DNA from: Candidatus Nomurabacteria bacterium
GTDB lineage: Bacteria > Patescibacteriota > Saccharimonadia > Saccharimonadales > Saccharimonadaceae
Length of the DNA: 64,000 bases
NCBI GenBank assembly: GCA_031255735.1
Contig: JAIRRY010000026.1
Span: 13,524-77,523 of the forward strand
Direction of reading: 5' to 3'
Shown piece by piece: positions 874 through 22,167 of this stretch. The notes under the pieces are model-generated. The model was not told the DNA's origin, searched no databases, and saw only the letters and a program-made list of their open reading frames with translations. The position numbers were made by a program, and so were the translations under genes. The first letter of the stretch is position 1; the number at the start of each line of letters is the position of its first letter.

Positions 874-1896
874 TTAAAATAAATTATCTTGCGTAGTGTG
901 ACCCAGATGTTTGAGCGCTTTGTTAGTAATCTTACGGCCGCGCGGCGTACGCTCAATAAGGCCAAGTTGCATCAGATACGGTTCGTAAAAGTCTTCAATT
1001 GTACTGGCTTCGTCGCCCGTTATAGCCGCCATCGTGTTTAGCCCAACGGCTTTAGTGCCGTAAGTGTTTATCATGCTAGCTAGCAAGTTGCGATCGCCCG
1101 CGTCAAGCCCGAGATTGTCGATCTCGAGCAGCTGCAAGGCCTCGGTTGTAATTCGCTCATCAATGGTGCCATCACCGTTTACATCAGCATAATCGCGGAC
1201 GCGCTTCAATAAACGGTTAGCAATGCGCGGCGTAAGGCGCGAACGAGTTGAGAGCAGCTTAGCCGCCATAGGCTGAATTTCACTTTCTAATATTTTTGCG
1301 GCGCGATTAATAATCTTCACGATTTCGCCCTCGTTATAAAATTCCAAGCGATGAATGTGACCAAAACGATCACGTAGCGGTGCAGCTAACGCACCCGTGC
1401 GAGTAGTAGCGCCAATTACTGTGAACTTTGGCAGATCGAGCCGCACACTACGCGCCGCTGGCCCTTTGCCAATGACAATATCAAGCTTGTAATCCTCCAT
1501 CGCTGAATACAAAACTTCCTCTACAGCACGATGCAAGCGGTGGATCTCGTCGATAAATAATATGTCGCCATCAACTAGGTTTGTTAGAATACTCGCTAAG
1601 TCGCCAGCGCGCTCAATGGCAGGGCCACTTGTAACCTTAAAACCCGTGCCCATTTCGTGCGCAATCACGCCAGCCATAGTGGTTTTACCCAAGCCTGGAG
1701 GGCCGTAAAGTAACACATGGTCAATCGGCTCACTGCGTTTTTTAGCGGCAGCAATCGCCAGCTTTAGATTGTTTTTTAGTCGCTCTTGACCAATATACTC
1801 TTTAAAACTTTGCGGCCTTAACGTAACCTCAATTTTTTGTTCTTCGTCGGAATCATGCGCGTCGATATCCACTATGCGTTCAATAGCCATACACAT
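874..1896 (-). CDS. ruvB: Holliday junction branch migration helicase RuvB
   Basis: 340-aa ORF with Walker [10 protein letters not shown], Walker [12 protein letters not shown], and C-terminal [14 protein letters not shown]. It lies directly downstream of ruvA on the same strand. Confidence 0.95.
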
Positions 1897-1987
1897 ATTA
1901 TATCATCATTAACTCTCTGCTCGGGATCGGCTTCAAGTTTCATAGTATAGCGACAGTATTCGCATCGGTCTTTAGAACATGGACCTG

Positions 1988-2548
1988 CTACTTTTTAAGT
2001 GCTAAGGTAACCCTCTGGTTAGTTGGCAGATCGCGTGGCACAGAGGCTAGAGCTTGGCTGGCGTCGTTCAGGCTATAGCCCAACGCCATAAGCGCCTCAA
2101 GTGACTCGTCGCCCTTTGCAGGTACTGTACCTGCAAAGCCAGTGTCGGGTAGACCAACCTTGTCTTTGAGATCAACAATGATGCGTTCAGCCGATTTTTT
2201 CCCAACTCCAGCCGCTTGTGAGATATAAGCCACATCGCCACTAGCAATGGCGCTGCGCACAGCCTCACTTTCACCTATGCTTAGCACCGCCATAGCAGCT
2301 TTCGGGCCAACACCCTGAACCGTGATCAATAGTTCAAAAAGACGTTTCGCCGCTAAGTTAGCAAAGCCGAACAACTCCTCGCTTTGTTCACGTATATGGT
2401 GATAGGTTTTCAGCTCAACTTCTTCGCCCACACCAATTTTCTCGTAATCATGCGCTGCTACGATAACCTCGTAACCCACACCGTGCACATCAACAACCAC
2501 GCTTGAAGCGTATTTTTCGACAACCTTACCAAAGATATGAGCAATCAT
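1988..2548 (-). CDS. ruvA: Holliday junction DNA-binding protein RuvA
   Basis: 186 aa. The N-terminus MIAHIFGKV is followed by helix-hairpin-helix motifs (ITVQGVGPKAAMAVL, ISQAAGVGKKSAERII). It is adjacent to ruvB. Confidence 0.9.
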   Translation of the reverse strand: MIAHIFGKVVEKYASSVVVDVHGVGYEVIVAAHDYEKIGVGEEVELKTYHHIREQSEELFGFANLAAKRLFELLITVQGVGPKAAMAVLSIGESEAVRSAIASGDVAYISQAAGVGKKSAERIIVDLKDKVGLPDTGFAGTVPAKGDESLEALMALGYSLNDASQALASVPRDLPTNQRVTLALKK

Positions 2549-2552
2549 TCTA

Positions 2553-4040
2553 TTAATAGTGTATCATGACGCGCGTGCCGATAGGTGCAAAGTTGTAAAT
2601 AAATTCGGCAGCTTCGTAGGTCATGTTGATACAGCCGTGGCTCATGGGCGTGCCGAAATTGTTGTGCCAGTAGGTGGCGTGAAAAGCGCGGCCGTCGGCA
2701 TCGAAATAACTAATCCACTCAACGTTTGGCACATTGTAAGGAACGCCCCCGATCACCCCTTTCATAGTTTGCACGCGGCGCTTGTGCCAAACCTTAAACT
2801 CGCCTGGCAAAGTGGGCGTAGCGGCAGTGCCAGATGAAATACGCCAGCTGGCGATGGCAGTACTACCAGTCCAGGCCGTGGCAGTTTGAGCGCTAAGGTT
2901 CACCTCTACCCAATGCTCGCCCTCGCCAGCCTTAATAGTCACACGGCTATAGCCAGTTTCCTCAACGTCGAGCTCTTTGCTCATATTCGTGCCACTTCTA
3001 ACCGCCTCAGCCAGCGCACCAGCAACCGCCGCATCATCACGAATTTTATAACCATTCTGCCCAGATGTTAACACGGCTCGTACGTTACCGCCGCTATCAA
3101 CCAAAACTTTCTCGTCGATTGGCGCACTAGCAATATAAGGCGCAACCGTGCCATTTAGAAACCGCTTAATTTCGTCGTGGTTAAAAGTTAGCTCGATTGC
3201 GCCGTCTTTGGGTGTAGCCACCACCCACCTAGCTATATCGGGCGGGTCGGCGTAATAAACTAGCCTGCCCCTGTAGGTTAAATCTAACCTTAGCCCGAGG
3301 CGAGCGTTCATAAATTCGGCAGCCTCTTCGGCAGCCTTATTAGTGATAGTCGGCAACGATTCAGCAGGAGTTAGCTTAACTTTCACCGCCCGCGGATTTT
3401 TTAGCATGCTGGTAATTGTGGCTTCCATATCGACTGGCGTAAGTTTAGTGCCAGGCTTGGCATCGGTCACATTAAAGTGGTTAGCGCCCACATCGTACTG
3501 AATACCCGCTTCTTGCACCCAAACCAGTTGGTCAACAAACGTGGTATTTAAGTATTCCTGTAGCTTCTTGTCGCTGCGAGCCACCACCAGCTCGGCTGGG
3601 TCGCGCGCTAGGTAGTTTAAAGCCGCAATTGGGTGTGTGTCTTTGTAATCCAGTATATTATTTACGGTTTTTTTAACGTCAACCGTAACACCTAGGTCTT
3701 TAGCCGTAGCCGTGGCGGTTTTATCGCCCACAGTAATTTTAGCCTTCATGGCTTTTACCATGATTTCAACGGTTTTAGTAAGTTCAGCGCGATCTTTACC
3801 CGAAACATTAGTGCCCGCCAGGCTGAAACCAGGTAAAACCTTACCGCGAAAAGCCAGATGCGTGAATACAAACAGTCCTGTTGTAATAATTACAACAGAT
3901 GCCACAACCCACAAGGCTAGTTTATGATGTTTACTAAGCCTCCCACGAGGCTTGATATCAATATCATCAAAACTATGCAAAGTATAAACGGGTGCGTAAA
4001 CGCCCGGGTTATAAACATGCTGATGAGCAGTCTTGGCCAC
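2553..4040 (-). CDS. L,D-transpeptidase (YkuD domain) with N-terminal membrane anchor
   Basis: 495 aa with one N-terminal TM helix. The C-terminal YkuD signature is FHATYWHNNFGTPMSHGCINM (catalytic His/Cys). Confidence 0.85.
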   Translation of the reverse strand: MAKTAHQHVYNPGVYAPVYTLHSFDDIDIKPRGRLSKHHKLALWVVASVVIITTGLFVFTHLAFRGKVLPGFSLAGTNVSGKDRAELTKTVEIMVKAMKAKITVGDKTATATAKDLGVTVDVKKTVNNILDYKDTHPIAALNYLARDPAELVVARSDKKLQEYLNTTFVDQLVWVQEAGIQYDVGANHFNVTDAKPGTKLTPVDMEATITSMLKNPRAVKVKLTPAESLPTITNKAAEEAAEFMNARLGLRLDLTYRGRLVYYADPPDIARWVVATPKDGAIELTFNHDEIKRFLNGTVAPYIASAPIDEKVLVDSGGNVRAVLTSGQNGYKIRDDAAVAGALAEAVRSGTNMSKELDVEETGYSRVTIKAGEGEHWVEVNLSAQTATAWTGSTAIASWRISSGTAATPTLPGEFKVWHKRRVQTMKGVIGGVPYNVPNVEWISYFDADGRAFHATYWHNNFGTPMSHGCINMTYEAAEFIYNFAPIGTRVMIHY

Positions 4041-4214
4041 ACTGAAGAACCATTCTTCTCGCGATTAGTATTTATTTTGCACTCTACTCTGATTAGTATA
4101 TCACCATACACTATAACTGGACAATAGAAAATAGCCTAAGAACTTATCCGGGTTTTTTGCGAATCTGAACCACGATGGAGAATATAAGTTAGTGATTTAT
4201 GCTATAATTTGAAC

Positions 4215-4301
4215 ATGAAGGTATATTTTGTTAGACACGGGCAAACTGATCAAAACCTTGATATGGCCGCTGGTAAGGACATGGAAGAATACGAGATATA
4301 A
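4215..4301 (+). pseudogene. N-terminal stub of a histidine phosphatase (phosphoglycerate-mutase family) gene
   Basis: ATG preceded by TGCTATAAT. The translation is MKVYFVRHGQTDQNLDMAAGKDMEEYEI followed by a stop. The RHG motif opening is typical of the family, but the ORF ends after 28 codons, exactly where composition turns AT-rich. Confidence 0.45.
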
Positions 4302-4711
4302 TCTACGATTTCACTGTGTATTTTACCCATGTAAATCGCAGCAATTAAGCCGCATTTTAAGTAAAAAATAACAAAATCATAAAAATAAACCGAATCTTGC
4401 ACTGGGTTTTAATAGAACTCTAACAATCTAAAAGACTTGAAAAACGTAACATAAACCAGGGTCGGCCTGCTTTCTTAAGTTTCAACAATTTGCAAATAGC
4501 CAAAAACCGCCATTTCTATGGAAGGCTTGCTGGCAGTAAGAGTAACTTCGGGTTATGCAACGTTGGTTTTATCTTGGCCATGCATTAGCTCAACGGTATA
4601 CTTGTAGCATTCCGGATTTTTCATATATGAAAAACTGCCCGACATAGTAAAAGCCCCCGACACACTGCATTTCTACAGGGTATCAGGGACTCGTTTTACC
4701 TACTCTTGAGC

Positions 4712-5632
4712 TTAAGATTTTTTAGCTTTCACCTCCTTTTTTACCATTTTGCTGAGGATCTCCCTTTCAGCCATGGCGATACTCCTCTTCAAGTGGAAAA
4801 CCATTTTCGCAATCTGCTCCTTCGTTGCTGGAGCAGCTTCTCCTTCGTTATCTAATAATTCAATGCCTGTTTCCGGGCTGATTGCTATATCAATATCAGA
4901 ACCACCATCAACGGTGTAACATAGAGAGACAGTCCAGTCACTGGGATTACTTTTTCCGCACCAATAGTCCACATCGGTAAACCCGCCCTCATCACCTCGT
5001 TCGGCGTCATTCCATCCGCTCGAGTGATAGGTGAGACACTCCGCACAATTACAAAAATTGGTATTAAAAATATCGGTTGCCAGAGAAACCTCGTAAGAAT
5101 TGTCAGACAGATCATACTCAATGCCTAGCCTTACTTTATCTACGTACGTGGCAGGCTCAGCTAGGGATATCCTATCGTTGCCGAAAGGATTTACTACATC
5201 CTTATACTGCGCTAGCACCTCCTGCAATTTTTTAAGATCTAGATCTACAGGAACTGCACATAAAGGCGCATTCGAGTCACGCAACGCGTGCTTGAGAAGC
5301 TTTTTGTAAATCGTATTAGTTAGACGATCAATGAATTTCTGATCATACTCGCGCTTTAGTAATGACACGAGTATGATCAACCCTTTTACGGAATGGATTT
5401 CTCCACTCCAAAAGTTATCACCGCCCTGGCCGCGTTCGCCTACTATCGCCATGGCAGCATTGTATATCCAATATGGAACCCCTTCCTGGACTACGTAATA
5501 CGTGCCAGAGTGGGTGAAAGTTACCCCTTCCACCTTAAAACAGGGCAGGGTCTTATGCCCCGGCCGATCTTTAATGCGATGAGTAAAAAGTGACCTCATC
5601 GTTATTTCGAACTCCTTAATCGAAATAGCCAT
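4712..5632 (-). CDS. hypothetical protein (island-encoded, Cys/Trp-rich C-terminal half)
   Basis: 306-aa ORF with a strong RBS (AGGAGGGAAGGAAAG before the ATG). I recognise no motif. It lies in the AT-richer island. Confidence 0.6.
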   Translation of the reverse strand: MAISIKEFEITMRSLFTHRIKDRPGHKTLPCFKVEGVTFTHSGTYYVVQEGVPYWIYNAAMAIVGERGQGGDNFWSGEIHSVKGLIILVSLLKREYDQKFIDRLTNTIYKKLLKHALRDSNAPLCAVPVDLDLKKLQEVLAQYKDVVNPFGNDRISLAEPATYVDKVRLGIEYDLSDNSYEVSLATDIFNTNFCNCAECLTYHSSGWNDAERGDEGGFTDVDYWCGKSNPSDWTVSLCYTVDGGSDIDIAISPETGIELLDNEGEAAPATKEQIAKMVFHLKRSIAMAEREILSKMVKKEVKAKKS

Positions 5633-5829
5633 CTTTCCTTCCCTCCTAAAAAATAAATAATTCTATCCCAGGCGGTTATTCGCCATAGGAATAATCAATA
5701 AAATTAATTAATACATTAATTTAATTCATTGACTATATGCTATGGCGGATTAATATATAAGAAAGTCTGTTTTTAGAGTAGGTTATTAAAGTGCAAGACA
5801 ATTAAGGCTTACTGAGTTTTTTGTGAAAA

Positions 5830-5940
5830 CAAAAAACTCCATCTAGATGGAGCAAACAATTTACACTGTTCACGCCCACCGTGATATCAAACTAATCATC
5901 TATACAGAATCTTAGTCATTGTCATATAACTTAGATTCTA
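5830..5940 (-). ncRNA. candidate small RNA / leader transcript, copy 1 of a duplicated module
   Basis: Minus-strand TTGACA (5969-5974), a 17-nt spacer, then TACTAT (5946-5951). About 100 nt follow. A perfect 16-nt palindrome CTCCATCTAGATGGAG (5837-5852) plus U6 then forms an intrinsic terminator. The core is nearly identical to 39500-39560. Confidence 0.3.
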
Positions 5941-5974
5941 TTATCATAGTAGCACACATTTTGGTAATTGTCAA

Positions 5975-6120
5975 GAGGGTGGTAATATTAGTGTTTTATA
6001 ATGAAAAATAGCAGTATTTCTAGGATATATAATTACATTAGAAAGGTTTTGGTGGGTTCTAAGTGGAGTGAAAAATGGATAAAAAAGGGTAGTATATTTT
6101 TAACGGTCTGAGCTGGTTAC
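5975..6120. repeat. left copy of an imperfect direct repeat of about 145 bp bracketing the island cassette
   Basis: It aligns by eye with 14299-14446, for example TAGTGTTTTAT, AGGATATATAATTACAT, GGTTT-GGTG and CTAAGT-GAGT-AAAAA. The right end is a decayed version of the tRNA-Pro 3'-end-like segment. Confidence 0.7.
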
Positions 6121-6349
6121 TTTAGATGTTCCATAGCAATAAGGTGTCGGAAGAGGCATGGTAAACCTAGGATAAAGAGTGAGCAAGGTGAGCAACTTTC
6201 TTAATTGTATGTTTGATGATTTTGCTAATGTTTGTGCTATAATTAGAAAGTCCAAATCTGTAAAGCCGTCGTTTTCGACACTTTACTTATTCAAACAAGA
6301 AAAGGGCACTGTACTCGAAGCTTGGTTTCAATAAGAACTTTGCAGGTTT

Positions 6350-6375
6350 GGACACCTAGAGCGGGTGTCCTTTTT
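6350..6375 (+). promoter_or_regulatory. terminator-like hairpin in the leader of the 1656-aa gene
   Basis: Stem GGACACC (6350-6356), a 7-nt loop, stem GGTGTCC (6364-6370), then TTTTT. It lies about 27 nt upstream of the ATG at 6402 and downstream of a TGCTATAAT box (6235-6243). Confidence 0.35.
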
Positions 6376-6401
6376 CTGAGGCGGCCGTTAGAAAGCAAAG
6401 T

Positions 6402-9400
6402 ATGATAGATAAAGAACCAAATATTAGCTCGTCTGAGGCGGTCGGCGAAGAGCTGCAAGATAAAGTGGATGCAACGATTATCGCGGCTACTTCGCTTAAA
6501 AAGACATTACTACCAAAGCGCAAAATCGAGGAATTCACTACGCCAGAATATGTACCAGAATACATTCCGTCGCCGAATGATAGGCACGATCAGCTCCCCA
6601 AACGAATACGAGCGACAGTCGACAAATACTTAGCTCATGTGGGCGAGAATCCACAGGAGGAAGATCATTCGGAAAACTATGAGCAAAATGTTCGTACTGC
6701 TGCAGCGCTACTTGAATTTTTCTCTGGAAAGCCCGGTAAAATTCGTCGAACTGGTAGCACATACAGAAATGAGCAATATGACAATAAAATTATTGATACG
6801 ATGATGCGAGCCATCGAGCAACAAAAACCAATAACAATTTTTGGTTTGTCTTTTTCGCCAAAATATCGTAATCCCAACTATTCTAATGGGAATCTGTTGC
6901 CGGATATGGCAAATTATCTCGCCATGTCTAATCTGCAACAGATTGCTCATGGAGCAAATGCGATTTATCCTCAAGGCGGGGTTGACTTTGTGGTTGGTTA
7001 TGAGGGTAAGATTTATCAGCAATTGGGTAAATATTCTGATGACGATGTAAGAAAAACGCTCGAAACAATCAATTTACTCAATGACCAAGCGAAGATGAAG
7101 GTAGCTAATGATGGCTCACCGAATCGCGTTCGCGTCGTCGATACAAGTGATTTAGTACACGAGTGTCTGCTTAATAATCAGTCAGAAGATTCAGAAGATT
7201 TTCGTCGCACCTTGGTCAGAAAACGTCGAGCGATACGTGAAGACTATGAAACAGGATACGAAACACTGATTTCGGAATTATCTGATGAGGGCGAAGATCG
7301 AGAGGTAGTGTTGCAGCGTATCGACAACTTGAAGCAAGATCGCATATTATCAAAAACAATTCGAGGCGCAGTTCAAGGGCTAGAGCAAGCAAAAGCGTCC
7401 CTATTGGAATCTGATGAGATGAAGGGCGAAACAGAAAGCAAGATTGATAGCAAAGTCAAAACTTTATCGACCTATGCTGAAATTGAAGCATGGAAAAACT
7501 TTTGGCTGACAACTACTTCCCCAGATATGTTTGCAGAGGGTGAGGATCCGGAACAGTATGCTACGAAAACTGCCATTGGCTATAAGGCGTTTAATGAAAT
7601 TAAGTATGAAGGCGGGAAGGGTGGTCGTGGTATTTTAGGTTTCTCTTCTAAGATTTTACCAATAACGGTAAACGGAACAAACCGAAAAATGAATTTCCAA
7701 TTAGTCCCAGAGTGGAATTATTATCCTCATCATCGTATGACAGCTAGAATAATGGATGCAAAATCGCAACGATACGCCTGGAAACCAATCAGCCAACAAG
7801 AAATGAATGATTTAAATACAGTATTTGTCCCTAGATTTATAGAGGGGTATAATTACCCATTCTATTATGAGCAACTTGTACCAGACACAGATATGTCGTC
7901 GCGAACTTCAATGGGCGCATCCGCAGAGCTACTTAAGTCTGAGGATGGCGGACGTTATATTGCTAAAACAGCCCTGTACGCAAATGGTGCCGAGCACTTA
8001 CTAAAACAAATATCAAAGATGCAAGCGATGAGGGAGGCTGGGATAGACATTATTCCAGAAATAATGGAAAGCAATATCAAAGAACACGGAATTAGGTATC
8101 TAATGCCGTATTTAGGCGATAAGGCACTAGATGGAGCAATGTTGTCAGAAAATCCATTATCTAACACCGAGGGACAGTTCCCTCAACTTCTGAATGGTCT
8201 TTATGGAAAACTATGGTCAATTGGGGAGAGAAAAACCGGCCCCACTAATTTTAGTGAATGCCACATGCGTTCGGTAGAAAAAGGTCTTCAGGCAGTAGAA
8301 CAATCTGATGACTTATGGCTGAATGACAATGAGCTTATTTTAGTGAATGGGAGACAGCAATTTAACCTGAAGATTGCTCTGGACTTATTAAAAAAATCTA
8401 ACCTGAACTTGGATAAGGTCTTTTCTGCTTCTATTATCCCTGAGTTTACTCATGGAGACCTGCATCTTGGAAACATTTTTATGGATGGCGACAATTTGCA
8501 GCTGATAGATATCAACGGTAATACTGAAAGAGATAACGTATCCATAGAGTTTGAGCTTTCGCGTTTGGTCTTAAGCTATTATCGGCAGATAATTCGTGAC
8601 GGAGAATACTCAATCGTCACTGACGAAAACGGCAATGATAATATTATTTACACCGAGAGAGGTAAAGAACTATTAGACGCACGAGAAAAGGCTCTTGAAT
8701 CTATTATGCAAAACCCCAATCTAAAAGAAGTGTTGACTGAAGAATCACTGATGAAAATTAAACTCCTTGAAGCATTAGATATCGCAAGCGTGTTCAATAA
8801 GCGTCCAGATGAACAGAAAGAAGGAACATATTTGATTGGTACGTCACTATTAAATGAGGTAATTCGTGATGGTGGGTTTGCGGATGACGCAATCTTGAAC
8901 TTAATGAGGCAAAAAATTAACGTTGACAATTATCGGGATGCTGAAGTTTACTCAAATATGGAAACTATCTTTCAGCAGTACTTGGGCGACAGATGGTCTG
9001 GCTATTCGATATCGCACATGTTTGATCAGTTTGTGCTGAGTGGGATCGCCAAAGATGGCAAGGTTGAAAGTTTTCTAACAGACAATAATATTCTGCCAGA
9101 TGAAATTAATAGAAACTATACTGGAGAAGAAAGTGCTTCGGGCGAGCGAATTATTAAGCAAGGCAATCAAGGATTATTACTGGCTTGGCAACAAATAAAC
9201 TTCCCTGAAAATGATCCAGGCAAGCTATTCCCATCCTTTGCTATTGAAGAACGTGCCATTTGGGATGCTATAAACAGTCATGAACCGTTACTTGTCGGTG
9301 ATCAACAATATTCCGTGGAAGGTATGTTGGGTTTAGGCAAAGAATCAAAAGTCTTCGCCGCCAAAACACCTGACGGAAAGTCGGTGGCAATAAAAATTGG

Positions 9401-11372
9401 GCTACAAAAACTTGATCCAGAATTTAAATATGCCGAAGATTTGAAAACGAGGTCAGGAGAGATTGCCCATCGATTCCCTGAATATCTCTCATACGATTCC
9501 GAAAAAAATATTATTGCTATGGAATTGATAGGTGGAAGCCCAGCTGAAGATGTTGTTCATTCGCTCGAAACACCTGACGAATGGGTAGATTTCGTGTCAA
9601 ATATGTCTGGCATAGTCAGTGACATCGCCACGCTAAACGAAAGAGGCATTTTTGCTGGTCAATTTAACCTTCGTAATGTCATTGTCGATGATGACGGAAA
9701 TTATCGTATAATCGATCCGTTATTTGAGGGTAGTCAAGATGTCTACGAATCAAAGCAAATTCTTCGCATAATGGGCGTACTAGTCCAGAAGATATACCAA
9801 ACAGACCCTGGCCGTTTCCCGCTGGACGTAAAGTCAGCGAATTCTGATATTGAACTCCGCAACCTGCGATATCCGGACGGCATTCTTCAAACATTATTAG
9901 AAAAAGAGATTAATATTCCAGAACCAATCAACAGTGAGCTCATCAAAACGTTTACGAAATATCTGCAAAATGGTATTGCGACTAAAACATTAGAAGATGC
10001 ATCCTCCGATTTTCGAGGTATTAGACGGTTGTGTGAAATTTATCAAAACCCCGATCGTGCGCCTAAATTTACCGGCATTCCTAGCGCACTAGCAGTAGAT
10101 CTAAATGGCACATTAGAAGAAGGTGGCATAATCAATGCCCAAACTGTGAAATCCATAAACCGTCTTTCTGGTCGTGGAATTCCTGTTGTTGTCATTTCCG
10201 GCAAGAACATAACTGGTATTGCCGAATTGCTGCAGACAAACGGCATTAGCCCCGCATCAATAGATATTATTTCTGATGAAGGTGCATATTACGTAAGTTC
10301 TGGTGAGGTCGTAAATAATATAACGATAGAAAATGTCGAAGGATTAACGGAAAATATTCGTTCCTATCTCAATAATCAAAACATCTTATCGACAGTTAGG
10401 AATAATGAACGTAGAATAAACATTCTACTTCCCCAAATCGATGAAACTGTGTTGTCTGCCATTTCGCAATATGCATTCAGTCAAAATTTAAACGTATCAT
10501 TAAATAGAGAAGTAGGACAAATTGACCTTACCGCTAAAGGGACGAATAAACAATCAGGTCTTTTGGCGGTCGCCAGTCGACACGGCATTGATCCGAACGA
10601 CATTGTTCGCGTAGGCAACGAACCAGATGGCAACGATAAAGAGATGTTATTTGACGAAGACGGCAACCGCAGAGATAACGCTTTCATGGTAACAAACTCA
10701 GCTGAAACAACGGCTATAATTGAATCTCTGACTGATACTATCGGCTATGGTGGCAAATATCGTTCTGGCGAAATGCCTACCCAGTTTGGCAGCTTTGACG
10801 ACTATGCCACAGCGACTGACTTTGAGGTTGAGCGCTTACGAACATCGGCAAAAACATCATCAAATATCTTCTATCCATATTCCGCACTAGAAAAGCGTTT
10901 TGACAAAAAAGACGAGAAAACTGTTGATTATAAATGGATACTTCGAGATTCTGAGTCGAATCCAATAGGTTTTACATCGATTAACGCAGTCGGCGGCAAT
11001 GGGTATTACAATATCAGCGGAATTTATTTAACGCCCGAAACGCGTGGGCATGGGGTGGCTTCTAAGGCAATGACTCAATTGAAGAATTTTGCTAGCAATA
11101 ATATTACTGGATTTCAAGGCTTTCGGGTCCGAATAGCTGAGGCAAACTTACCTTCTCGTATGTTGTTTGAAAGATCTGGCTTTGTACCGACAGAAGTGCT
11201 AGAAGATGACTATACGCTTATAGTCGATGGTAAAGAGCAAAGAGCAAAAACGATTGTTTATGAATATTCTCCAACTTCCCAAGTTCAAGGTATAAATCTA
11301 GCGCAGAATGACGTTTTGACTGGCGAGCAACTGAGGATAGTGTATAACGAGCAAAAAGAATTGAAAGCATAA
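6402..11372 (+). CDS. 1656-aa multidomain fusion: DIT1/PvcA-like (isonitrile synthase family) + APH-type kinase + degenerate protein kinase + HAD-IIB hydrolase + GNAT acetyltransferase
   Basis: Uninterrupted ORF with these motifs:
- aa 143-205: PITIFGLSFSPKYRNP...LLPDMANYLA...IYPQGGVDFVVGYEGKIY (PvcA/DIT1-like core).
- aa 684-705: HGDLHLGNIFMDGDNLQLIDING (APH Brenner motif).
- aa 976-1000: GLGKESKVF...VAIK.
- aa 1084-1106: FAGQFNLRNVIVDDDGNYRIIDP (catalytic HxD lost).
- aa 1231-1237: AVDLNGT, and aa 1405-1415: GNEPDGNDKEM (HAD motifs I and IV).
- aa 1545-1556: PETRGHGVASKA (GNAT motif A). Confidence 0.8.
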   Translation: MIDKEPNISSSEAVGEELQDKVDATIIAATSLKKTLLPKRKIEEFTTPEYVPEYIPSPNDRHDQLPKRIRATVDKYLAHVGENPQEEDHSENYEQNVRTAAALLEFFSGKPGKIRRTGSTYRNEQYDNKIIDTMMRAIEQQKPITIFGLSFSPKYRNPNYSNGNLLPDMANYLAMSNLQQIAHGANAIYPQGGVDFVVGYEGKIYQQLGKYSDDDVRKTLETINLLNDQAKMKVANDGSPNRVRVVDTSDLVHECLLNNQSEDSEDFRRTLVRKRRAIREDYETGYETLISELSDEGEDREVVLQRIDNLKQDRILSKTIRGAVQGLEQAKASLLESDEMKGETESKIDSKVKTLSTYAEIEAWKNFWLTTTSPDMFAEGEDPEQYATKTAIGYKAFNEIKYEGGKGGRGILGFSSKILPITVNGTNRKMNFQLVPEWNYYPHHRMTARIMDAKSQRYAWKPISQQEMNDLNTVFVPRFIEGYNYPFYYEQLVPDTDMSSRTSMGASAELLKSEDGGRYIAKTALYANGAEHLLKQISKMQAMREAGIDIIPEIMESNIKEHGIRYLMPYLGDKALDGAMLSENPLSNTEGQFPQLLNGLYGKLWSIGERKTGPTNFSECHMRSVEKGLQAVEQSDDLWLNDNELILVNGRQQFNLKIALDLLKKSNLNLDKVFSASIIPEFTHGDLHLGNIFMDGDNLQLIDINGNTERDNVSIEFELSRLVLSYYRQIIRDGEYSIVTDENGNDNIIYTERGKELLDAREKALESIMQNPNLKEVLTEESLMKIKLLEALDIASVFNKRPDEQKEGTYLIGTSLLNEVIRDGGFADDAILNLMRQKINVDNYRDAEVYSNMETIFQQYLGDRWSGYSISHMFDQFVLSGIAKDGKVESFLTDNNILPDEINRNYTGEESASGERIIKQGNQGLLLAWQQINFPENDPGKLFPSFAIEERAIWDAINSHEPLLVGDQQYSVEGMLGLGKESKVFAAKTPDGKSVAIKIGLQKLDPEFKYAEDLKTRSGEIAHRFPEYLSYDSEKNIIAMELIGGSPAEDVVHSLETPDEWVDFVSNMSGIVSDIATLNERGIFAGQFNLRNVIVDDDGNYRIIDPLFEGSQDVYESKQILRIMGVLVQKIYQTDPGRFPLDVKSANSDIELRNLRYPDGILQTLLEKEINIPEPINSELIKTFTKYLQNGIATKTLEDASSDFRGIRRLCEIYQNPDRAPKFTGIPSALAVDLNGTLEEGGIINAQTVKSINRLSGRGIPVVVISGKNITGIAELLQTNGISPASIDIISDEGAYYVSSGEVVNNITIENVEGLTENIRSYLNNQNILSTVRNNERRINILLPQIDETVLSAISQYAFSQNLNVSLNREVGQIDLTAKGTNKQSGLLAVASRHGIDPNDIVRVGNEPDGNDKEMLFDEDGNRRDNAFMVTNSAETTAIIESLTDTIGYGGKYRSGEMPTQFGSFDDYATATDFEVERLRTSAKTSSNIFYPYSALEKRFDKKDEKTVDYKWILRDSESNPIGFTSINAVGGNGYYNISGIYLTPETRGHGVASKAMTQLKNFASNNITGFQGFRVRIAEANLPSRMLFERSGFVPTEVLEDDYTLIVDGKEQRAKTIVYEYSPTSQVQGINLAQNDVLTGEQLRIVYNEQKELKA

Positions 11373-11373
11373 A

Positions 11374-13590
11374 ATGGAGTTTACTGAACTAAAAACAGCT
11401 GACCCATTCGTCGAGCAAACCTCCGAACGACCCGTTATTAGGCAAGAATTAGTGGGACCAGAAGAAGATATTGAGCGAAATCCACTACAACTCAGAGAAA
11501 TTACATTGGAGGATTACAACCACGATCTATCAAAAGAACGGGTTGAAACAGCTCAAAATATTCTGCAACAAGAAATGAGCAATACCAGATATGATTCATT
11601 CTTGCTCCTCAAGCAAGCGGCATCATATCAAGACATGCTACAAGCATCACAAAGTCCACATATTGAAGATGTGTTTAGGGGCAGCCAGGGTCTTACTTGT
11701 GTCCAGATGGCAGAACTAATGAAGGCAAGGTTTGCTGAGCATGGGCTAAAATCTCATTTTGTCTGTTTCAACACACAAGGGCAGATTAATTCCCCTGGGC
11801 ACGACTACTCTCCTATTGGTCATATCGCAAGTGCGGTTCCATTCGATGACAGTGGGCAGAAGCAGTTTCTCCTTGCTGATTTGGGTCTGGCTGTACCAAA
11901 AGTTATGACATTCCCAGAAGGCGGCTCATCGAAAGAATATCACTATGGTGATAAAAAGTGTCAAGTAATATTTACGAACACCGACGAACAAAAGCCCTAT
12001 GAAATAGTTATATCTTCTTACGATCCTAAAGCCCAAGAGTATCATATTGCTGACCGTGCTTCATTTGACCCTTTTACTGCCCTAGAGAATCCCAGCGTGG
12101 TCACGAATGATAATATGCGTACTCTCCCCGGTTTCCGCACCACAAAATATGACACTGACGGCAGGGTTCTCGCTAATATTTCCGCCGATCTAAAAAAGAG
12201 ATCCATCAAGCTTAAAATAATGGGTGATGACGGTGAGTATATCACCAAAATACTGTCTTCCAACGACGACATTAATACGCCTGAGATAACGCAGTTGTTG
12301 TCTCGCGCTTCTAATTTTTTAGGGGAAACGGAAGAAGATCTTTTGGGTGATTTGCAAGTTTTTCGTGAACATGGCGAAGAATATTATGAAACCGTTATAG
12401 CTCCTTCCGTTAAGGAACAGATCCGACAAGAACAGATACTCAGCAAAGAAAAATCAGAAGCGACAGATACAAATCTCAAACTGTTCGTCAAGGATGTTCT
12501 TTCAGATTTTGTCTCTGGTGAAATAGATTTTCATGAGCACAAATATAATGTTCGGTTCAATTTAACCGGCACTTCTGGCGAAGAAATATTAGCCACACCA
12601 CAACAGCCAATAAGGCATTCTTCTGCATATGGAGAAGTCGTTCCGACGCTAAGAATTACAGATATAGCGAAAATGTCACATGCCATAGATAGTTTTCTGG
12701 CAGCTTGTTCGCAATACCAAAATCTGCTCTGGGTAAAAAGTCGCATGAATCATAGTCCCGAGCAAATAAAGAAAAACCTCTTAACTCAAATATGGTTTAA
12801 CGCCACAGAAGCCGATTTTGCAAATCCAGAGGATTTTATTAATAGACAAGAGCGATTTGTCCGAGATGATAAATTGGATGATTATAACAGGCAACATCTT
12901 TCAGCACCGATCCCGTCTCTTGAAAATTGCCGATTATCTACTGTGAGGGCAGAGCAAAGCGGTAGCAACGAGTCCCCTTATATGTTAAATTTTGCGCTAA
13001 ACAGCGAAACTGCCACCTATAATCTTCCTAGCATTAGATATGCTACTGATGGCGACGCTGCCTATATTTTTTCCATCCAAAAACCTAAAAATATCGATCA
13101 AACCGATGAAGACCGACTTCTCGCCAAAAAGCTCAATCGCCGTTTCTTTAAACTGAACAAGGGGGTATTAGATGCGGAATCAGACGAGTTTAAGGAGTAT
13201 CAGCGACTACGCTCTGACGACGCATTGATCGGGGATGAGCCCTACCCAGAGAACATCAGTGATGTCACACCGGCTTCACTAATAAGTTTACTGTCAACAT
13301 TGGACGCCATGAAGAGTAAGGGGATTATAACTATTAAAGTCCCGTATTTCTGTCCATTACGCTATCAAGCACATGCGCGCCTCGGGCTAGAAGAGCAAGA
13401 ACGAATCCAAGACAATGTCAGTAATAAATTTCTCCGTACTTTTCGACGCTTAGCATTTCACTTTGACAGTATAAAAATGTCCAATATAGATAAATCTGGT
13501 TATACCGAAATTGACATTTATGCTCTAGATATCGGTAATTCCGATATTCTAAATGAAGTTATTTCGGCAATAAAAACACCTGAAAGTTAG
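11374..13590 (+). CDS. 738-aa protein with N-terminal arylamine N-acetyltransferase-like / transglutaminase-like Cys-His-Asp region
   Basis: The start is 2 nt after the stop of the 1656-aa gene. Candidate triad: GSQGLTC(109)VQMAELMKARFAEHGL, then PIGH(150)IASAV, then FLLAD(169)LGLAVP. This mirrors the NAT pattern (GGxC..., H, D-x-G). The C-terminal 400 aa are unrecognised. Confidence 0.65.
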   Translation: MEFTELKTADPFVEQTSERPVIRQELVGPEEDIERNPLQLREITLEDYNHDLSKERVETAQNILQQEMSNTRYDSFLLLKQAASYQDMLQASQSPHIEDVFRGSQGLTCVQMAELMKARFAEHGLKSHFVCFNTQGQINSPGHDYSPIGHIASAVPFDDSGQKQFLLADLGLAVPKVMTFPEGGSSKEYHYGDKKCQVIFTNTDEQKPYEIVISSYDPKAQEYHIADRASFDPFTALENPSVVTNDNMRTLPGFRTTKYDTDGRVLANISADLKKRSIKLKIMGDDGEYITKILSSNDDINTPEITQLLSRASNFLGETEEDLLGDLQVFREHGEEYYETVIAPSVKEQIRQEQILSKEKSEATDTNLKLFVKDVLSDFVSGEIDFHEHKYNVRFNLTGTSGEEILATPQQPIRHSSAYGEVVPTLRITDIAKMSHAIDSFLAACSQYQNLLWVKSRMNHSPEQIKKNLLTQIWFNATEADFANPEDFINRQERFVRDDKLDDYNRQHLSAPIPSLENCRLSTVRAEQSGSNESPYMLNFALNSETATYNLPSIRYATDGDAAYIFSIQKPKNIDQTDEDRLLAKKLNRRFFKLNKGVLDAESDEFKEYQRLRSDDALIGDEPYPENISDVTPASLISLLSTLDAMKSKGIITIKVPYFCPLRYQAHARLGLEEQERIQDNVSNKFLRTFRRLAFHFDSIKMSNIDKSGYTEIDIYALDIGNSDILNEVISAIKTPES

Positions 13591-13667
13591 TGCATTTTGA
13601 TAATATTCTTATATTTTTACTAATCACCAATAACAGAGGTATAGACCCGAGCATGTCTCTAAACTAC

Positions 13668-14159
13668 TCAAAAAACATTCGTCTTTAAAAACTTGAGGAA
13701 CGATAGGGATTTCAACTGTTCGTTGAAGTTTAACATTATGTTCGCTAGATAATCTATCGCCGACCCCACGGTGCCATCACTGCCACGTTCTACACTCCCA
13801 GATAACCCGCCACTAGACCCACCTCTATCTCCAAAGAAACCTGATGGAACTTTACCAACTATAATATTTGGCTTTTGAGGTTTATTTACCTCTTGAACAC
13901 CAACCATGATTACTACACAGGTCAAAGCGTCAACGATACCATCGTGTTTCTCAATTCCAAATCCTACTAGCTGAGTCAAGAGATTTTTCGTCTTGTCTCT
14001 AGGAAACAGTATCTGTCCATTCTTAATTCGGCGCGAAATCATACTCAACCTAGCTCGTTTATCTTGGTTTGGCTTGTAACACCTAACGTCTATGTAGTAA
14101 TTAGATAATGCCCATATTGAAAGGTTTGAACACTGAGAGAAGAGTGTATTAGTCAACAT
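13668..14159 (-). pseudogene. phage terminase large-subunit C-terminal fragment (prophage remnant)
   Basis: 163-aa ORF. The segment DKRARLSMISRRIKNGQILFPRD...LLTQLVGFGIEKHDGIVDALTCVV matches the conserved C-terminal nuclease tail of large terminases (...v.fP...L..el..F...HDD.vDAl). The ATPase part is absent. Confidence 0.45.
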
Positions 14160-14171
14160 ATGAGTTCATAA

Positions 14172-14285
14172 CTAACGCTTAGTGGTATTACTAGGACGTT
14201 AAACAAATTACTTGACTATTACAATAATGAGCGATTACACTTAGGATTGCAGTGTACGACACCTCAGGAGATGTTGCTAAGGTAG
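14172..14285 (+). mobile_element. C-terminal tail of an rve (DDE integrase-core) IS transposase, remnant only
   Basis: The translation LTLSGITRTLNKLLDYYNNERLHLGLQCTTPQEMLLR then a stop carries the YNxxRxHxxLxxxTPxE tail typical of rve-family transposases. No upstream catalytic part is present. Confidence 0.55.
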
Positions 14286-14298
14286 GGGGATTTGTACG

Positions 14299-14446
14299 TA
14301 GGGTGATGGTAACCTTAGTGTTTTATGATGTAGAATAGTAGTCTTTATAGGATATATAATTACATAAAAAGGTTTGGTGACTCTAAGTAGAGTAAAAACG
14401 ACTAAAAATGGCTTTACATTTTGAATGGTCGGGGTGCTTGGTTGAG
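14299..14446. repeat. right copy of the direct repeat of about 145 bp; contains a duplicated tRNA-Pro(UGG) 3' end plus terminator flank
   Basis: It aligns with 5975-6120. Positions 14418-14436 (ATTTTGAATGGTCGGGGTG) are identical to 22082-22100. That segment covers the last 11 nt of tRNA-Pro(UGG), including CCA, and the 8 nt beyond it. Looser similarity extends over 14393-14436 versus 22056-22100. Confidence 0.75.
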
Positions 14447-14469
14447 GTTTTAACCAGCCTTTAACAGAG

Positions 14470-14492
14470 CAAAAACAGCCTCAAATGGCTGT
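14470..14492 (-). terminator. intrinsic terminator after tRNA-Pro(CGG)
   Basis: The minus strand reads ACAGCC-AUUUGA-GGCUGU-UUUUG, immediately 3' of the tRNA. Confidence 0.6.
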
Positions 14493-14503
14493 CACATAAT
14501 CCA

Positions 14504-14580
14504 TGGTCGGGACTGGCGGATTTGAACCGCCGACCTCACCGTCCCGAACGGTGCGCGCTACCAAGCTGCGCCAAGCCCCG
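14504..14580 (-). tRNA. tRNA-Pro (anticodon CGG)
   Basis: The reverse complement folds as a cloverleaf. Acceptor CGGGGCU/AGUCCCG, anticodon stem CACCG/CGGUG with loop UUCGGGA, T-loop GGUUCAAAUCC, encoded CCA. Confidence 0.9.
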
Positions 14581-14594
14581 ATATTACGATTATA

Positions 14595-16220
14595 TCACTG
14601 CCCAACCAGATTGCGCCGATGCCAAGCAAGAGCGCCAAGTAGGCCGAACACCACAGCTGCTAACAAGCACCACGCCAGCGGCGCTACAGTTATATCGTTA
14701 GCCGGCGCTACTGCAAAATGGCGCATTATAGACGTGTTCATGACCCATTCGTCGAGATTTAGTAGCGGCCCAAGCCAAGACATAAAAGCCACCCAACCAA
14801 AATAAACCCAAACTACTAACCCCGCTATGCGTGGCAAAACGCCAAACATCAACACATAAGCACCTATAAATACTAATAGCAGCGGCCAATAAGATAACCC
14901 TGCTAAACCGTAGCTTAAAATGTCTACTGAAAAATCTGAGCAGAGGTTTACACAGATAGCCAGAGCGGCCCCACAAGCAACCAACATAAATGCGCCGCAC
15001 AAAGCCACAGTTGCAGTATGTAAGACCAGCCACTTGGTGCGCGTTAACTTAGTGGAGAGTAAGCTTTCAAGATGTCCGCTCGACTCTTCGCTGCGTAATC
15101 TGCCCATAGCTTGCACAACATAAGCCAGCACCATTACGGTTGCAATAGCCAACATAACGCTTAGAAAAGTAGGGATCATAGCGCCTGTTCCGCCCATTGA
15201 TTTGATTAGCAGGCGCGTAGTTTCGGTTGTTTCATAAACATGGCTCATTTGCGGCACTAGCACACCAACCGTCACGATAAGCGCCAGCGAGCCGATTAAC
15301 CAACCAATAAAAATGTTCTTTTGCAGATACCAAGTAAGGCCAACCGGCGTTCGTAGTAACCTGCTCGCCCGTGCGCGACCCTTGCGGCTAGGCAGTAAAC
15401 CCGCACCAATGTCGCGATGCATGAGTAGCACGAAAGCCAGTGGGATCACTACAAGCACGAAGGCAATCGGGATAAGTAGCGGCCACCATTCTGGAAAAGT
15501 AATGCTACGCAAGGCTTGCATCCAGCCAAACGGGCTTAGATAACTCAGCCAAGCTGGTTGCAGCAAACCATCAGCGCCAACTTTGCCCGTAAAATCACCG
15601 ATGCCGCGTGCTAGAAAAGTTGCGCCCACTAAAACCGCCATGAAACCGCTACTTGAGCGCGTTGACTGAAAAAGCTGCACCACGACAGCCGCAATAGCTG
15701 CCCACACAAAGCCGAACAACCCCATACCCAGGCCGTAGAGCCACGAGCCTTCAACAGTAATATCGGCGCACAGAGTATGCATGCCAAAACCTAATCCAAC
15801 CGCGATAAGTGCGTTAGCCAAAAACGCCACGATCAGTACCGCAATCAGGCTAGTGCCACGATGTGTGCGGCCGCTCAAAATCAACTCTTGCGCGCCCATT
15901 TCCTCATTCTGACGCGTGTGGCGCACCACCAAAAACGCGTTCATAAACGCCACAGCCAATCCCCACCATAAAAGCGTTTCGATGGTTACCAATGCACCAA
16001 AACTCGGCTCATCCAGAAAACCAGTTAATAGCAGCCCAGCAGCATTAGTTTTGAACGCCTCGTAGAGTGTAGTTAAACTCGCCGCATCGCCGTAAGTTTC
16101 TTTCAATATCGGCAGCATATAAAGCAACGTCACCACAATACTAACTATCCAGATCGGCAATTTAATACGATCGCGCCGCAATATGAGCTTAGTTAACGGC
16201 CAGATTCCAGCAAACATCAC
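14595..16220 (-). CDS. ABC-2 type exporter permease (about 12 TM)
   Basis: 541-aa highly hydrophobic ORF. It overlaps the upstream ATPase gene by 4 nt. Confidence 0.7.
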
Positions 16221-16969
16221 TCCTCCTCGTATTGACTTAAGAATATCTTTTCGAGATTAGTATGCTCATGCTTTAGTTCGGCGAGCGAATAGTCGGCCAC
16301 GGCCTTACCTTCACGGATGATAGTAACACGGTCGCACAAAGCCTCAGCCTCGCTTAAAATATGGCTGGAAAGTAGAATAGTTTTACCCTGCTCTTTGAGC
16401 GCTCGCACTTCATCTTGGAAAACCTGCTCCATAAGTGGATCGAGACCACTAGTAGGCTCATCTAAAATATAAAGTGGCACGTCGCTAGCTAACGCCGCCA
16501 CTAACGCCACTTTCTGGCGATTGCCCTTGCTGTAAGTGCGAAACTTTTTAGTTGCATCAAGCTCGAAAACCTTGAGAAGCTCTGCTCTGCGCTGTTCATT
16601 TAAGCCACCCCTTAGTTCACCCAGTAGGTCGATAATCTCGCCGCCAGTGAGGTTTGGCCAAAAGTTCACGTCGCCTGGCACGTACGCCAGCTTTTTATGT
16701 AGCTTAACAGACTTACCCCATGGGTCTTCGCCGAACAGCCTTGCTTCGCCACTCGTTTTCTTGAGTAACCCAAGTAACATGCGAATAGTGGTACTCTTAC
16801 CTGCCCCATTCGGCCCTAAAAAACCGTGTATCTCACCTGGCCCGACTACCAAGCTTAACCCGTTTAAAGCTTTTGTACTACCAAAATATTTGTGCAAGTT
16901 TCTAATCTCGATAATTGGCCTTTGTTCGTTTGGCACCACATCCTCCTTTATAAACGCTAGTGCTTTCAT
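16217..16969 (-). CDS. ABC transporter ATP-binding protein
   Basis: 250 aa with Walker [10 protein letters not shown], signature YSKGNRQKV, Walker [13 protein letters not shown] and H-loop SSHIL. Confidence 0.9.
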
Positions 16970-17049
16970 TGTAACATAGGCCGCACCAAGCCACGCATGG
17001 AGGTTACAAGATTTAGCATTACCGATATATGATAAAATAGCAAGAAGTC

Positions 17050-22078: not shown

Positions 22079-22089
22079 TGTATTTTGAA

Positions 22090-22167
22090 TGGTCGGGGTG
22101 AGAGGACTTGAACCTCCGGCCTCTGCGTCCCAAACGCAGCGCGCTAATCCAACTGCGCCACACCCCG
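22090..22167 (-). tRNA. tRNA-Pro (anticodon UGG)
   Basis: Reverse complement CGGGGUG...CUGCG-UUUGGGA-CGCAG...GGUUCAAGUCC...CACCCCGACCA. The cloverleaf is regular. Confidence 0.9.

Follow-up and report, generated by a model that had tools for sequence, protein, structure and literature searches.

A probable composite island on the 3' side of tRNA-Pro(CGG) in a small Saccharimonadales genome, and the repeat-bracketed two-gene cassette that it carries

How do ultra-small bacteria of the Candidate Phyla Radiation (CPR) gain genes? These organisms are thought to be streamlined and to carry few mobile elements, and their gene gain is poorly understood. The question is raised by a stretch of 64,000 nucleotides, hereafter the window, from a Candidatus Nomurabacteria bacterium of the Saccharimonadales (contig JAIRRY010000026.1; C17:13524-77523 in our numbering), in which about 10 kb of AT-richer DNA separate an L,D-transpeptidase gene from tRNA-Pro(CGG). 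The 652-kb source genome consists of 29 contigs and is 86.6% complete. The locus is of interest as a 10-kb gain at a tRNA gene in a genome of 0.65 Mb, and because its pair of cargo genes is also bracketed by repeats in other animal-gut bacteria. We consider it probable, though by no means certain, that positions 4125-14436 of the window represent an acquired composite island on the 3' side of tRNA-Pro(CGG), which was built by stepwise accretion of modules lacking a recombinase, with recombination provided in trans, and which subsequently decayed. The island itself is of an ordinary kind. The parts worth following are the recombinase-less, repeat-bracketed cassette and its enzyme cargo.

Extra DNA beside tRNA-Pro(CGG)

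The limits of the extra DNA are defined by the following features.

4125-14436: the island as refined, 10,312 bp, missing from the orthologous site of a congener and delimited by flank synteny and composition
4095-4124, minus strand: promoter-like site of the L,D-transpeptidase gene, TTGTCC-18-TATACT with TG; native flank and left limit of the inserted DNA
14437-14503, minus strand: native trailer of tRNA-Pro(CGG), with a terminator at 14493-14474
14504-14580, minus strand: tRNA-Pro(CGG), intact (ARAGORN; Rfam, 59.8 bits), with the island on its 3' side

The corresponding empty site was examined in one congener, G001. In this genome an ABC permease gene, tRNA-Pro(CGG) and the L,D-transpeptidase gene follow each other contiguously, and about 70 bp lie between the 3' end of the tRNA and the start of the transpeptidase gene. 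The equivalent transpeptidase promoter is located within these 70 bp. In the source genome, the distance between the tRNA-Pro(CGG) and L,D-transpeptidase genes is about 10.4 kb. The flanks have housekeeping character, with ruvB, ruvA and the L,D-transpeptidase gene on the left and ABC transporter genes on the right. DNA synteny with G001 was detected on both sides of the island, namely at window positions 2037-3539 and 14498-14581. The tRNA-Pro(CGG) gene is 96.4% identical to that of G001 over an 84-nt alignment, homology resuming at 14498, and the permease and L,D-transpeptidase homologues share 52% and 61% of their amino acids, respectively. The island was set at 4125-14436 because of the transpeptidase promoter-like site (4124-4095) and the native tRNA trailer (14437-14503), and it ends 67 nt from the 3' end of tRNA-Pro(CGG). 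An earlier, sequence-only reading of the window had placed this tRNA with its own terminator at the right edge, and this was confirmed. About 10.4 kb are present here and missing in G001 on the 3' side of the tRNA. This DNA was gained or, less likely, lost in G001.

The composition of the island sets it apart from the remainder of the genome. The GC content over 4215-14446 is 0.404, compared to a genome mean of 0.460. The flanks have about 0.48-0.51, as against roughly 0.40 across 4-14.5 kb. Among 404 genome-wide windows of 10 kb, that of the island has the lowest GC content (0.405; mean 0.460, sd 0.017). Likewise, the 5-kb windows of the island occupy ranks 1-6 of 522 by tetranucleotide distance (0.37 versus 0.164 ± 0.035), and this ranking is unchanged after base-composition normalisation. 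The drop in composition across about 4.3-14.45 kb that had been noticed by eye is thus reproduced by sliding GC and tetranucleotide profiles, in which the island is distinguishable from its flanks and extreme for the whole genome. The GC content at third codon positions (GC3) of the two large genes, 0.363 and 0.367, is the 6th and 11th lowest among 382 open reading frames (ORFs), whereas that of a third gene, o306, is ordinary (0.461). Therefore, the island is not uniform.

Could the 10 kb be ancestral to the genus and have been deleted in G001, with an odd composition that merely reflects unusual proteins? Only one congener was compared, and it shows other insertions or deletions nearby (about 2.8 kb with three ORFs, near the ruvA-ruvB homologues). 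On the other hand, the tetranucleotide deviation survives the base-composition correction, the island contains debris of a phage and an insertion sequence (IS), its site adjoins a tRNA gene, and its two-gene cassette was also found in unrelated hosts and settings, a non-CPR metagenome-assembled genome (MAG) among them. We therefore regard a loss in G001 as very improbable. The neighbouring difference is an excess in G001 (L005, G001:C1), where 8404-11240 corresponds to window positions 1891-2037; the additional 2.8 kb with three ORFs fall in a stretch taken to hold the ruvA and ruvB homologues.

Even less credible is an assembly artefact, that is, a mis-join through the multicopy repeat R or through the direct repeats D1 and D2 described below. 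Repeat R does interrupt many of the contigs, although C17 passes through a copy of it. Both outer flanks of the island are syntenic with a single contiguous stretch of G001, so that a chimera would need two compensating mis-joins. Furthermore, the sequence at the outer junctions is unique, an identity of no more than about 80-83% between D1 and D2 should not confuse an assembler, and the repeat-cassette-repeat layout was assembled independently in several other samples. Altogether, the foreign acquisition that had been proposed from the sequence is borne out by the empty site in the congener, the most extreme composition of the genome, and the phage and IS debris.

The same reading had described the left edge as a resident histidine-phosphatase gene whose remainder had been replaced by foreign DNA. 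The feature concerned is the following.

4209-4301, plus strand: stub of 28-30 codons resembling the N-terminus of an RHG-type histidine phosphatase, in an ORF behind a TGCTATAAT box

The ORF does exist, but its identity as a histidine phosphatase is weak, as its match to PF00300 (His_Phos_1) has an E-value of 0.013 and a score of 15.7 bits, which is under the cut-off of 21.7 bits. No remainder of a phosphatase was found in 4228-4663, and no PF00300 gene was found in the source genome or at the orthologous site in G001. The comparison with a relative did reveal an empty site, but one in which tRNA-Pro adjoins the L,D-transpeptidase gene without any phosphatase gene. Since the stub lies within the DNA that G001 lacks and G001 has no phosphatase here, truncation of a resident gene is not the simplest reading, and the view that the island interrupted a resident phosphatase gene is not supported by the sequences compared.

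Direct repeats, stacked modules and a recurring cassette

The interior of the island is organised around two direct repeats that bracket a segment with two large intact genes and some debris.

5980-6108: D1, the distal direct repeat, whose right end is a degenerate 3' end of the tRNA-Pro(UGG) type
14307-14436: D2, the tRNA-proximal direct repeat, whose last 19 nt (14418-14436) are identical to 22082-22100
6402-11372, plus strand: o1656, a five-domain fusion enzyme of 1656 aa (DIT1_PvcA, APH, RIO/Bud32-like, HAD-IIB and GNAT domains according to Pfam and NCBIfam)
11374-13590, plus strand: o738, its partner of 738 aa; the N-terminal half has the fold of an arylamine N-acetyltransferase (NAT) or amide synthase, and the C-terminal domain belongs to an unannotated family
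13668-14159, minus strand: ORF of 163 aa with a C-terminal stub of a phage terminase large subunit (TerL), homology being confined to nt 13890-14129
14172-14285, plus strand: C-terminal tail (37 aa) of an rve-type transposase, matching PHROG transposase families

D1 and D2 are 83% identical over 69 nt and 79.8% identical over 129 nt, and their Smith-Waterman score of 118 compares with 18.9 ± 2.6 for shuffled sequences (z = 37.6). They start 8,327 nt apart and bracket a proximal segment of 8.2 kb, flanking a unit without recombination genes. The non-coding repeats that had been reported in this region are thereby substantiated. The last 19 nt of D2 are an exact copy of 11 nt from the 3' end of tRNA-Pro(UGG) plus 8 nt of its trailer, and the similarity to the tRNA-Pro(UGG) end spans 47 nt, including the terminator. 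The alignment of the two repeats extends into the degenerate counterpart of this tRNA-end fragment in D1. Contig C26 has a third copy of D, at a distance of 22 nt from the tRNA-Gln 3' end. Between 14418-14436 and 22082-22100 lie tRNA-Pro(CGG), the ABC transporter genes and a fibre operon. A tRNA-Val-like core in D (GTTTTGGTGGG) was also considered, but an alignment of the window repeats with those of the yak genome listed below showed no convincing homology, and this candidate was rejected.

The two large genes are not confined to this genome. The gene pair, or the large gene alone, was found between repeats in the following settings.

Window: 129-nt repeats, about 80-83% identical, 8.2 kb apart; tRNA-Pro(CGG) 67 nt from D2
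L019, a yak Saccharibacteria MAG: 71-nt repeats, 80% identical and ending in 7 nt of tRNA-Val(CAC), 8.3 kb apart; tRNA-Val adjacent
L006/L007/L024: 67-nt repeats, 98.5% identical, 8.0 kb apart with the two genes alone inside; no tRNA in the flanking DNA examined
L025: 61-nt repeats, 88.5% identical, 8.0 kb apart; no tRNA in the flanking DNA examined
L012/L013: 80-nt repeats, 91% identical, 8.3 kb apart; no tRNA in the flanking DNA examined
L018, a MAG with non-CPR-like genes: copies of the tRNA-Ser(TGA) trailer around the large gene alone, in an island after tRNA-Gln and tRNA-Ser

The cassette is thus a discrete repeat-bounded unit in several genomes, and it lies three times at tRNAs. The same 8-kb cargo occurs at different tRNAs in different genomes. 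Brackets outside the window contain the cassette and at most one small unannotated ORF, with no phage gene, and no recombinase was found inside any bracket. The neighbours outside the brackets differ from genome to genome, and the repeat sequences are unrelated between genomes. The GC content of the cassette is 0.41-0.43 in hosts of 0.35-0.46, with the exception of L009, where it is 0.34 in a host of 0.30. In L009, whose contig starts only about 530 nt upstream of the gene pair, we detected no bracketing repeat. In L010 the large gene occurs without its partner and without a repeat, among ordinary housekeeping-type genes. The o1656 homologue of L019 is split by a frameshift (4400-4800), which makes it either a pseudogene or the product of a sequencing error; the window copy is intact.

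From D2 leftwards, the order of features in the window is the rve tail, the terminase-stub ORF, and then the convergent intact genes o738 and o1656. The terminase tail that had been noted from the sequence was confirmed: it matches TIGR01630 (1e-5) and phrog_38 (3e-6), and residues 11-90 of the 163-aa ORF correspond to residues 394-476 of a 482-aa TerL with 45% identity (E 6e-20). This TerL comes from a viral contig of 37 kb, where its gene is followed by a portal gene. The proposed rve transposase tail did receive matches, namely to phrog_956 (5e-4) and a second PHROG transposase family (3e-3), and it is 50% identical over 32 aa to a sequence in L018, but these values and the short alignment leave its support weak. 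The other island ORFs had no match in PHROG, and the phage content amounts to the last ~80 terminase residues only. No homologue of the terminase-stub ORF was found among the small ORFs of the other cassette loci. Neither did we find IS copies at both island ends, the only such trace being the 37-aa transposase tail.

Might this debris be the remnant of a single prophage that had integrated at tRNA-Pro and decayed, with the cassette as a moron, D1 and D2 as attR and attL, and the rest removed by an IS and by deletions? The TerL stub and the transposase tail lie between the cassette and D2, and relatives of the stub reside on 37-kb viral contigs. Morons are typically located at prophage ends. 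This explanation is nevertheless improbable, because the brackets at the other loci are free of phage genes and no cassette relative was found in 2.9 million viral contigs. Moreover, the distal part of the island lies outside D1-D2 and would require a separate event.

That distal part has its own orphan gene and its own repeats.

4583-4662: an 80-nt module downstream of o306, with the 18-nt palindrome TTTTTCATATATGAAAAA; a second copy lies on contig C12
4712-5632, minus strand: o306, an orphan protein of 306 aa and the cargo of the distal module
5629-5979, minus strand: the dispersed repeat R, comprising the promoter and ribosome-binding site (RBS) region of the orphan gene and a double hairpin with CTCCATCTAGATGGAG; strong promoter

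The 80-nt module is 88.8% identical to C12:14947-15024, where it is found downstream of another orphan gene. The protein o306 had no match in Pfam, NCBIfam, PHROG or PADLOC. It has five homologues with 32-40% identity, one of them in a genome of 27% GC. Its structure model is confident, with a pLDDT (predicted local distance difference test) of 80.7, and has no significant match in the PDB, and a fold search gave one marginal BFVD match to an uncharacterised protein of a jumbo phage. No paralogues of the island proteins were found elsewhere in the source genome.

The palindrome CTCCATCTAGATGGAG of R has 12 exact copies in the genome, and BLAST detected R on 11 contigs, many copies lying exactly at contig ends. 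R was located at 5629-5979 and 39453-39562 of the window and on C4, C5, C6, C12, C13, C14, C20, C25, C26 and C28. Copies of R adjoin tRNA-Gln, tRNA-Leu and tRNA-Arg. The minus strand of R has a near-consensus promoter, TTGACA-17-TACTAT with TG (5974-5946), and a terminator about 100 nt further on (5853-5836). As predicted from these signals, promoter to terminator would form a unit of about 100-150 nt resembling a small RNA (sRNA), and the predicted transcripts have a 5' hairpin in common. Past the terminator, a shared promoter/RBS segment precedes a different orphan gene at at least four loci. R is accordingly a candidate sRNA family or portable promoter/terminator, as judged from its sequence. 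It belongs to no Rfam family, and an Rfam scan of 3500-15000 at E ≤ 1 matched tRNA alone.

The conclusion from these observations is that the sequence-only reading of an old, immobilised acquisition needs to be amended. Acquisition and immobilisation in cis both hold, the latter because no recombinase lies inside the island. A single event is not borne out, as there are at least two stacked modules and the two-gene cassette recurs between repeats in other genomes. The age is uncertain, since its signals conflict: D1 and D2 are only 80-83% alike, while the GC3 of the cassette shows no drift towards that of the host and both genes are intact with conserved motifs.

Possible routes of docking and comparison with known systems

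We propose that site-specific recombination at the 3' end of a tRNA brought in each module, by means of a recombinase supplied from outside the module. This could have been a helper phage or element, such as the integrase and Xis-like pair on contig C9, or an enzyme that has since been lost. Newer arrivals would displace older modules away from the tRNA. The distal module would be the older one; it would begin with repeat D1, extend from about 6125 to somewhere between 4583 and 4125, and comprise a multicopy promoter/hairpin unit with the orphan gene o306 as cargo. The proximal segment (about 6109-14436) would have brought the intact two-gene cassette together with the phage and IS debris, and ends in the D2 tip that copies a tRNA-Pro 3' end. 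The long repeats would then combine a short core from a tRNA end with the ends of stacked, related elements, which are homologous to one another. Later deletions may have removed the IS and the body of the phage, after which the cargo stayed fixed in place.

Which enzyme could have acted? The claim that the window contains no integrase or recombinase gene withstood our searches: Phage_integrase (PF00589) had no match on contig C17, rve (PF00665) had none in the whole genome, and a crude regular expression for serine recombinases yielded nothing credible. The genome has two tyrosine recombinases, both on contigs other than C17, one being Xer-like and the other phage-type. The latter, a 375-aa integrase, is accompanied by an adjacent Xis-like ORF of 102 aa (C9:43238-44660), and the assembly contains no other candidate for a trans-acting integrase. 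The pair lies close to the end of C9, which is 44859 nt long: some 200 bp remain beyond the Xis-like ORF, whose last position is 44660.

Several observations weigh against stepwise docking at tRNA ends. No recombinase is linked to the D or tRNA sites. The tRNA fragment in D2 derives from tRNA-Pro(UGG) and not from the adjacent tRNA-Pro(CGG), and the two tRNA ends have only TGGTCGGG (8 nt) in common. An extra step is needed to account for the UGG end: either a secondary site may have been used, or there may have been a move from the UGG gene, which lies at a distance of 7.6 kb. The outer left boundary lacks a significant tRNA-end scar: the best match to the 3' end of tRNA-Pro(CGG), a weak 20-nt likeness at 4446-4466, had z = 3.1, was exceeded by some shuffles, and was rejected as a scar. 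A 20-mer scan for scars of all tRNA ends, allowing up to 4 mismatches, found none either. The L006 group and L012 show no tRNA in the flanking DNA examined, which, depending on the locus, extends no further than about 4-10 kb beyond the gene pair. The single informative relative is distant (about 70% nucleotide identity in the flanks), and the direction of the change, gain and not loss, was derived from the composition and the debris. Lastly, the repeats are entirely different from genome to genome, and the tRNA itself contributes only 7-11 nt to them, the bulk being tRNA trailer or intergenic sequence. So short a tRNA part in long trailer repeats is unusual for the att sites of integrases, and homologous recombination fits equally.

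In that case, modules would move by homologous recombination on R and D modules, tRNA trailers and tRNA genes, either through natural transformation or via a looped-out circle. The repeats of 60-130 nt are roughly evenly conserved, they are specific to each genome and built of local terminator and promoter sequence, and no bracket contains a recombinase. The at least 12 copies of R in the source genome could serve as portable homology, and in L012 a row of small genes is spaced by repeated intergenic modules. In addition, Saccharibacteria show natural competence, and they incorporate DNA through homologous recombination (PMC10633639). What this route does not explain is that, in both the window and L019, the final 7-11 nt of tRNA genes match up with repeat ends, and that a tRNA-Pro(UGG) end stands beside tRNA-Pro(CGG) although these ends have just 8 nt in common. 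Also, the first insertion would need another mechanism to create the duplicated homology. We regard homologous recombination as a possible but rather unlikely explanation, though it is the main alternative as to mechanism.

Among known systems, the island is a tRNA-associated genomic island in the classical sense, minus the integrase and the outer tRNA repeat. It shares with classical islands the location on the 3' side of a tRNA, the atypical composition, the accessory cargo, the phage and IS remnants, and the absence from a relative. It differs from them by having no integrase and no clear duplication of the tRNA 3' end at the outer boundaries; instead, it has internal 129-nt repeats that are mostly trailer and copy the end of the other proline tRNA. 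The cis-mobilizable elements (CIMEs) of Streptococcus thermophilus are att-flanked elements without an integrase that accrete in tandem and whose mobility is presumed to be provided in trans. Similar to these, the loci described here have direct-repeat-bounded modules without recombination genes (bracketed in the window, L019, the L006 group, L025 and L012) that are stacked at one site. In contrast to CIMEs, the repeats have no sequence that is conserved from genome to genome, the elements reside in an ultra-small CPR bacterium, and the only candidate partner is the phage-type integrase of C9 with its Xis-like ORF. As described by McMurdie et al. (2011, PMC3146451), ssrA-specific islands are a major source of strain diversity in Dehalococcoides, and 15 of 31 have no integration module. 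These islands sit at the tmRNA gene and about half of them keep a syntenic integration module (PMC3146451), whereas here several tRNAs serve as anchors and no integration module is present in any locus examined. By analogy, integrase-less att-flanked tandem accretion and the Dehalococcoides ssrA islands appear to be the closest concepts.

Two further systems show partial resemblance. Integron arrays also consist of small self-contained units between repeated modules resembling recombination sites, with no recombinase inside. However, there is no IntI or attI beside the present array, and the units have their own promoters and are dispersed at several tRNAs. An attC-like organisation was not demonstrated in the repeats, to which no attC model was applied, although R does have palindromes. 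The promoter-early stem-loop (PeSL) modules belong to the hyperplastic regions of T4-like phages. They resemble R as a repeated module of promoter and hairpin beside unrelated orphan genes, possibly providing portable homology for shuffling, but R is found in a bacterial chromosome, often next to tRNA genes, and may encode a small RNA.

If docking were both site-specific and dependent on functions in trans, it would be a gene-capture route that is not described in the literature searched, and a literature search on tRNA islands of Saccharibacteria found nothing. A broader proposal would be that the 8-kb cassette is a self-contained, horizontally mobile unit for making or modifying a small molecule, and one cargo of an undescribed recombinase-less gene-capture system shared by gut Saccharibacteria and neighbouring bacteria. 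Its units would be docked behind tRNAs in trans, between repeats that join a tRNA-end core to conserved element ends, and R would belong to the machinery and not be simple intergenic filler; we offer this tentatively and consider it unlikely as a whole.

The next most atypical regions of the genome by k-mer content adjoin tRNA genes as well. They are located at C23:9-15 kb, C23:29-33 kb and C6:0-9 kb, beside tRNA-Arg(TCT), tRNA-Lys(CTT) and tRNA-Thr(GGT), which suggests that there are more tRNA-anchored islands at these positions.

The cargo genes o1656 and o738

What does the cassette encode? The sequence-only reading had pointed to three large ORFs without ordinary housekeeping identity and had recommended the island as the place to seek novel cargo. 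Both points are upheld: the three ORFs are o1656, o738 and o306, and the 1656-aa and 738-aa proteins have just 6 and 3 relatives, respectively, among 5.8 billion proteins.

The six homologues of o1656 are 43-52% identical to it. The N-terminal domain matches PF05141 (DIT1_PvcA) with 32.8 bits, above the cut-off of 26.4, and this match spans only profile positions 3-157 of 273 (about 55%). A family profile built from the six homologues matched isonitrile synthases, Rio-type kinases, Cof-type phosphatases and SpeG in the PDB; the values were 1e-5 for the isonitrile synthase 9dh4, 3.5e-6 for the kinase 9x4g, 2e-5 for the HAD protein 1wr8 and 1e-3 for SpeG. Invariant motifs include HGDLHxGN and IDxNG of the APH type and R-G-x-G-V-A of the GNAT domain. 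The RIO-like domain has GQFNLRN at the expected site of the catalytic Asp, so that it is without this residue. Motif I of the HAD domain is DLNGT. The N-terminal domain thus resembles isonitrile synthases (PvcA/IsnA; PDB 9dh4, 3e59) above the Pfam cut-off, and differs from them in that only about 55% of the PvcA profile is matched and in its fusion to two kinase-like domains, a HAD domain and a GNAT domain. A full-text literature search yielded no description of an o1656-type fusion with two kinase-like domains, HAD and GNAT.

The start of o738 lies one nucleotide after the stop codon of o1656, an arrangement that predicts translational coupling. In a Foldseek search, the model of its N-terminal half matched 8k51, 8osz (GdmF) and 2vfb with E-values of about 1e-5 and template-modelling (TM) scores of about 0.56, and Cys109, His150 and Asp169 are invariant in the 5 aligned o738 sequences. 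These residues form a candidate NAT-type triad, by which the modelled N-terminal half resembles the NAT-fold amide synthases (GdmF, PDB 8osz). The NAT sequence profile alone was not significant (E 0.33). Both halves of o738 also occur as stand-alone unannotated families, with 731 representatives in all. A single-protein scan of the genome contigs for o738 found nothing.

Judging from the folds and motifs, the cassette probably makes or modifies an amine-bearing small molecule, through isonitrile-synthase-like chemistry, (de)phosphorylation and N-acylation. The five-domain enzyme and its NAT-type partner could in this manner make or modify a metabolite that is used in the relationship between an epibiont and its host. 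Saccharibacteria that are genetically tractable, and in which the cargo could be studied, are now available (PMC10633639). A defence role is the weaker alternative. It was considered because PADLOC reported one marginal kinase match on the island (PD-T4-6, E 0.0034) and because L012 and L018 have defence-type neighbours. The L018 island also has a type III restriction-modification pair and a radical-SAM gene. In L012, a row of small genes (Csx3-like, HD, AAA_33, PIN) at 5300-18600 is split by repeated intergenic modules of 80-400 nt; this row, of which the cassette is one unit, looks like a cassette array in another bacterium.

Upstream of o1656 there is a leader of 290 nt with the elements listed here.

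6231-6370, plus strand: leader elements of the large gene, with a putative promoter TGCTATAAT at 6231-6248 (repeat D5) and a terminator-like hairpin at 6350-6370

The leader has no Rfam match and is not conserved in the other cassette loci, and neither R nor the leader showed any DNA similarity to those loci outside the coding regions. The TGCTATAAT sequence is an extended -10 box. The hairpin at 6350-6370 is GC-rich, is followed by a T run and lies only 30 nt before the start codon of o1656 (leader 6231-6401); with this layout, it may act as an attenuator or a riboswitch-like control.

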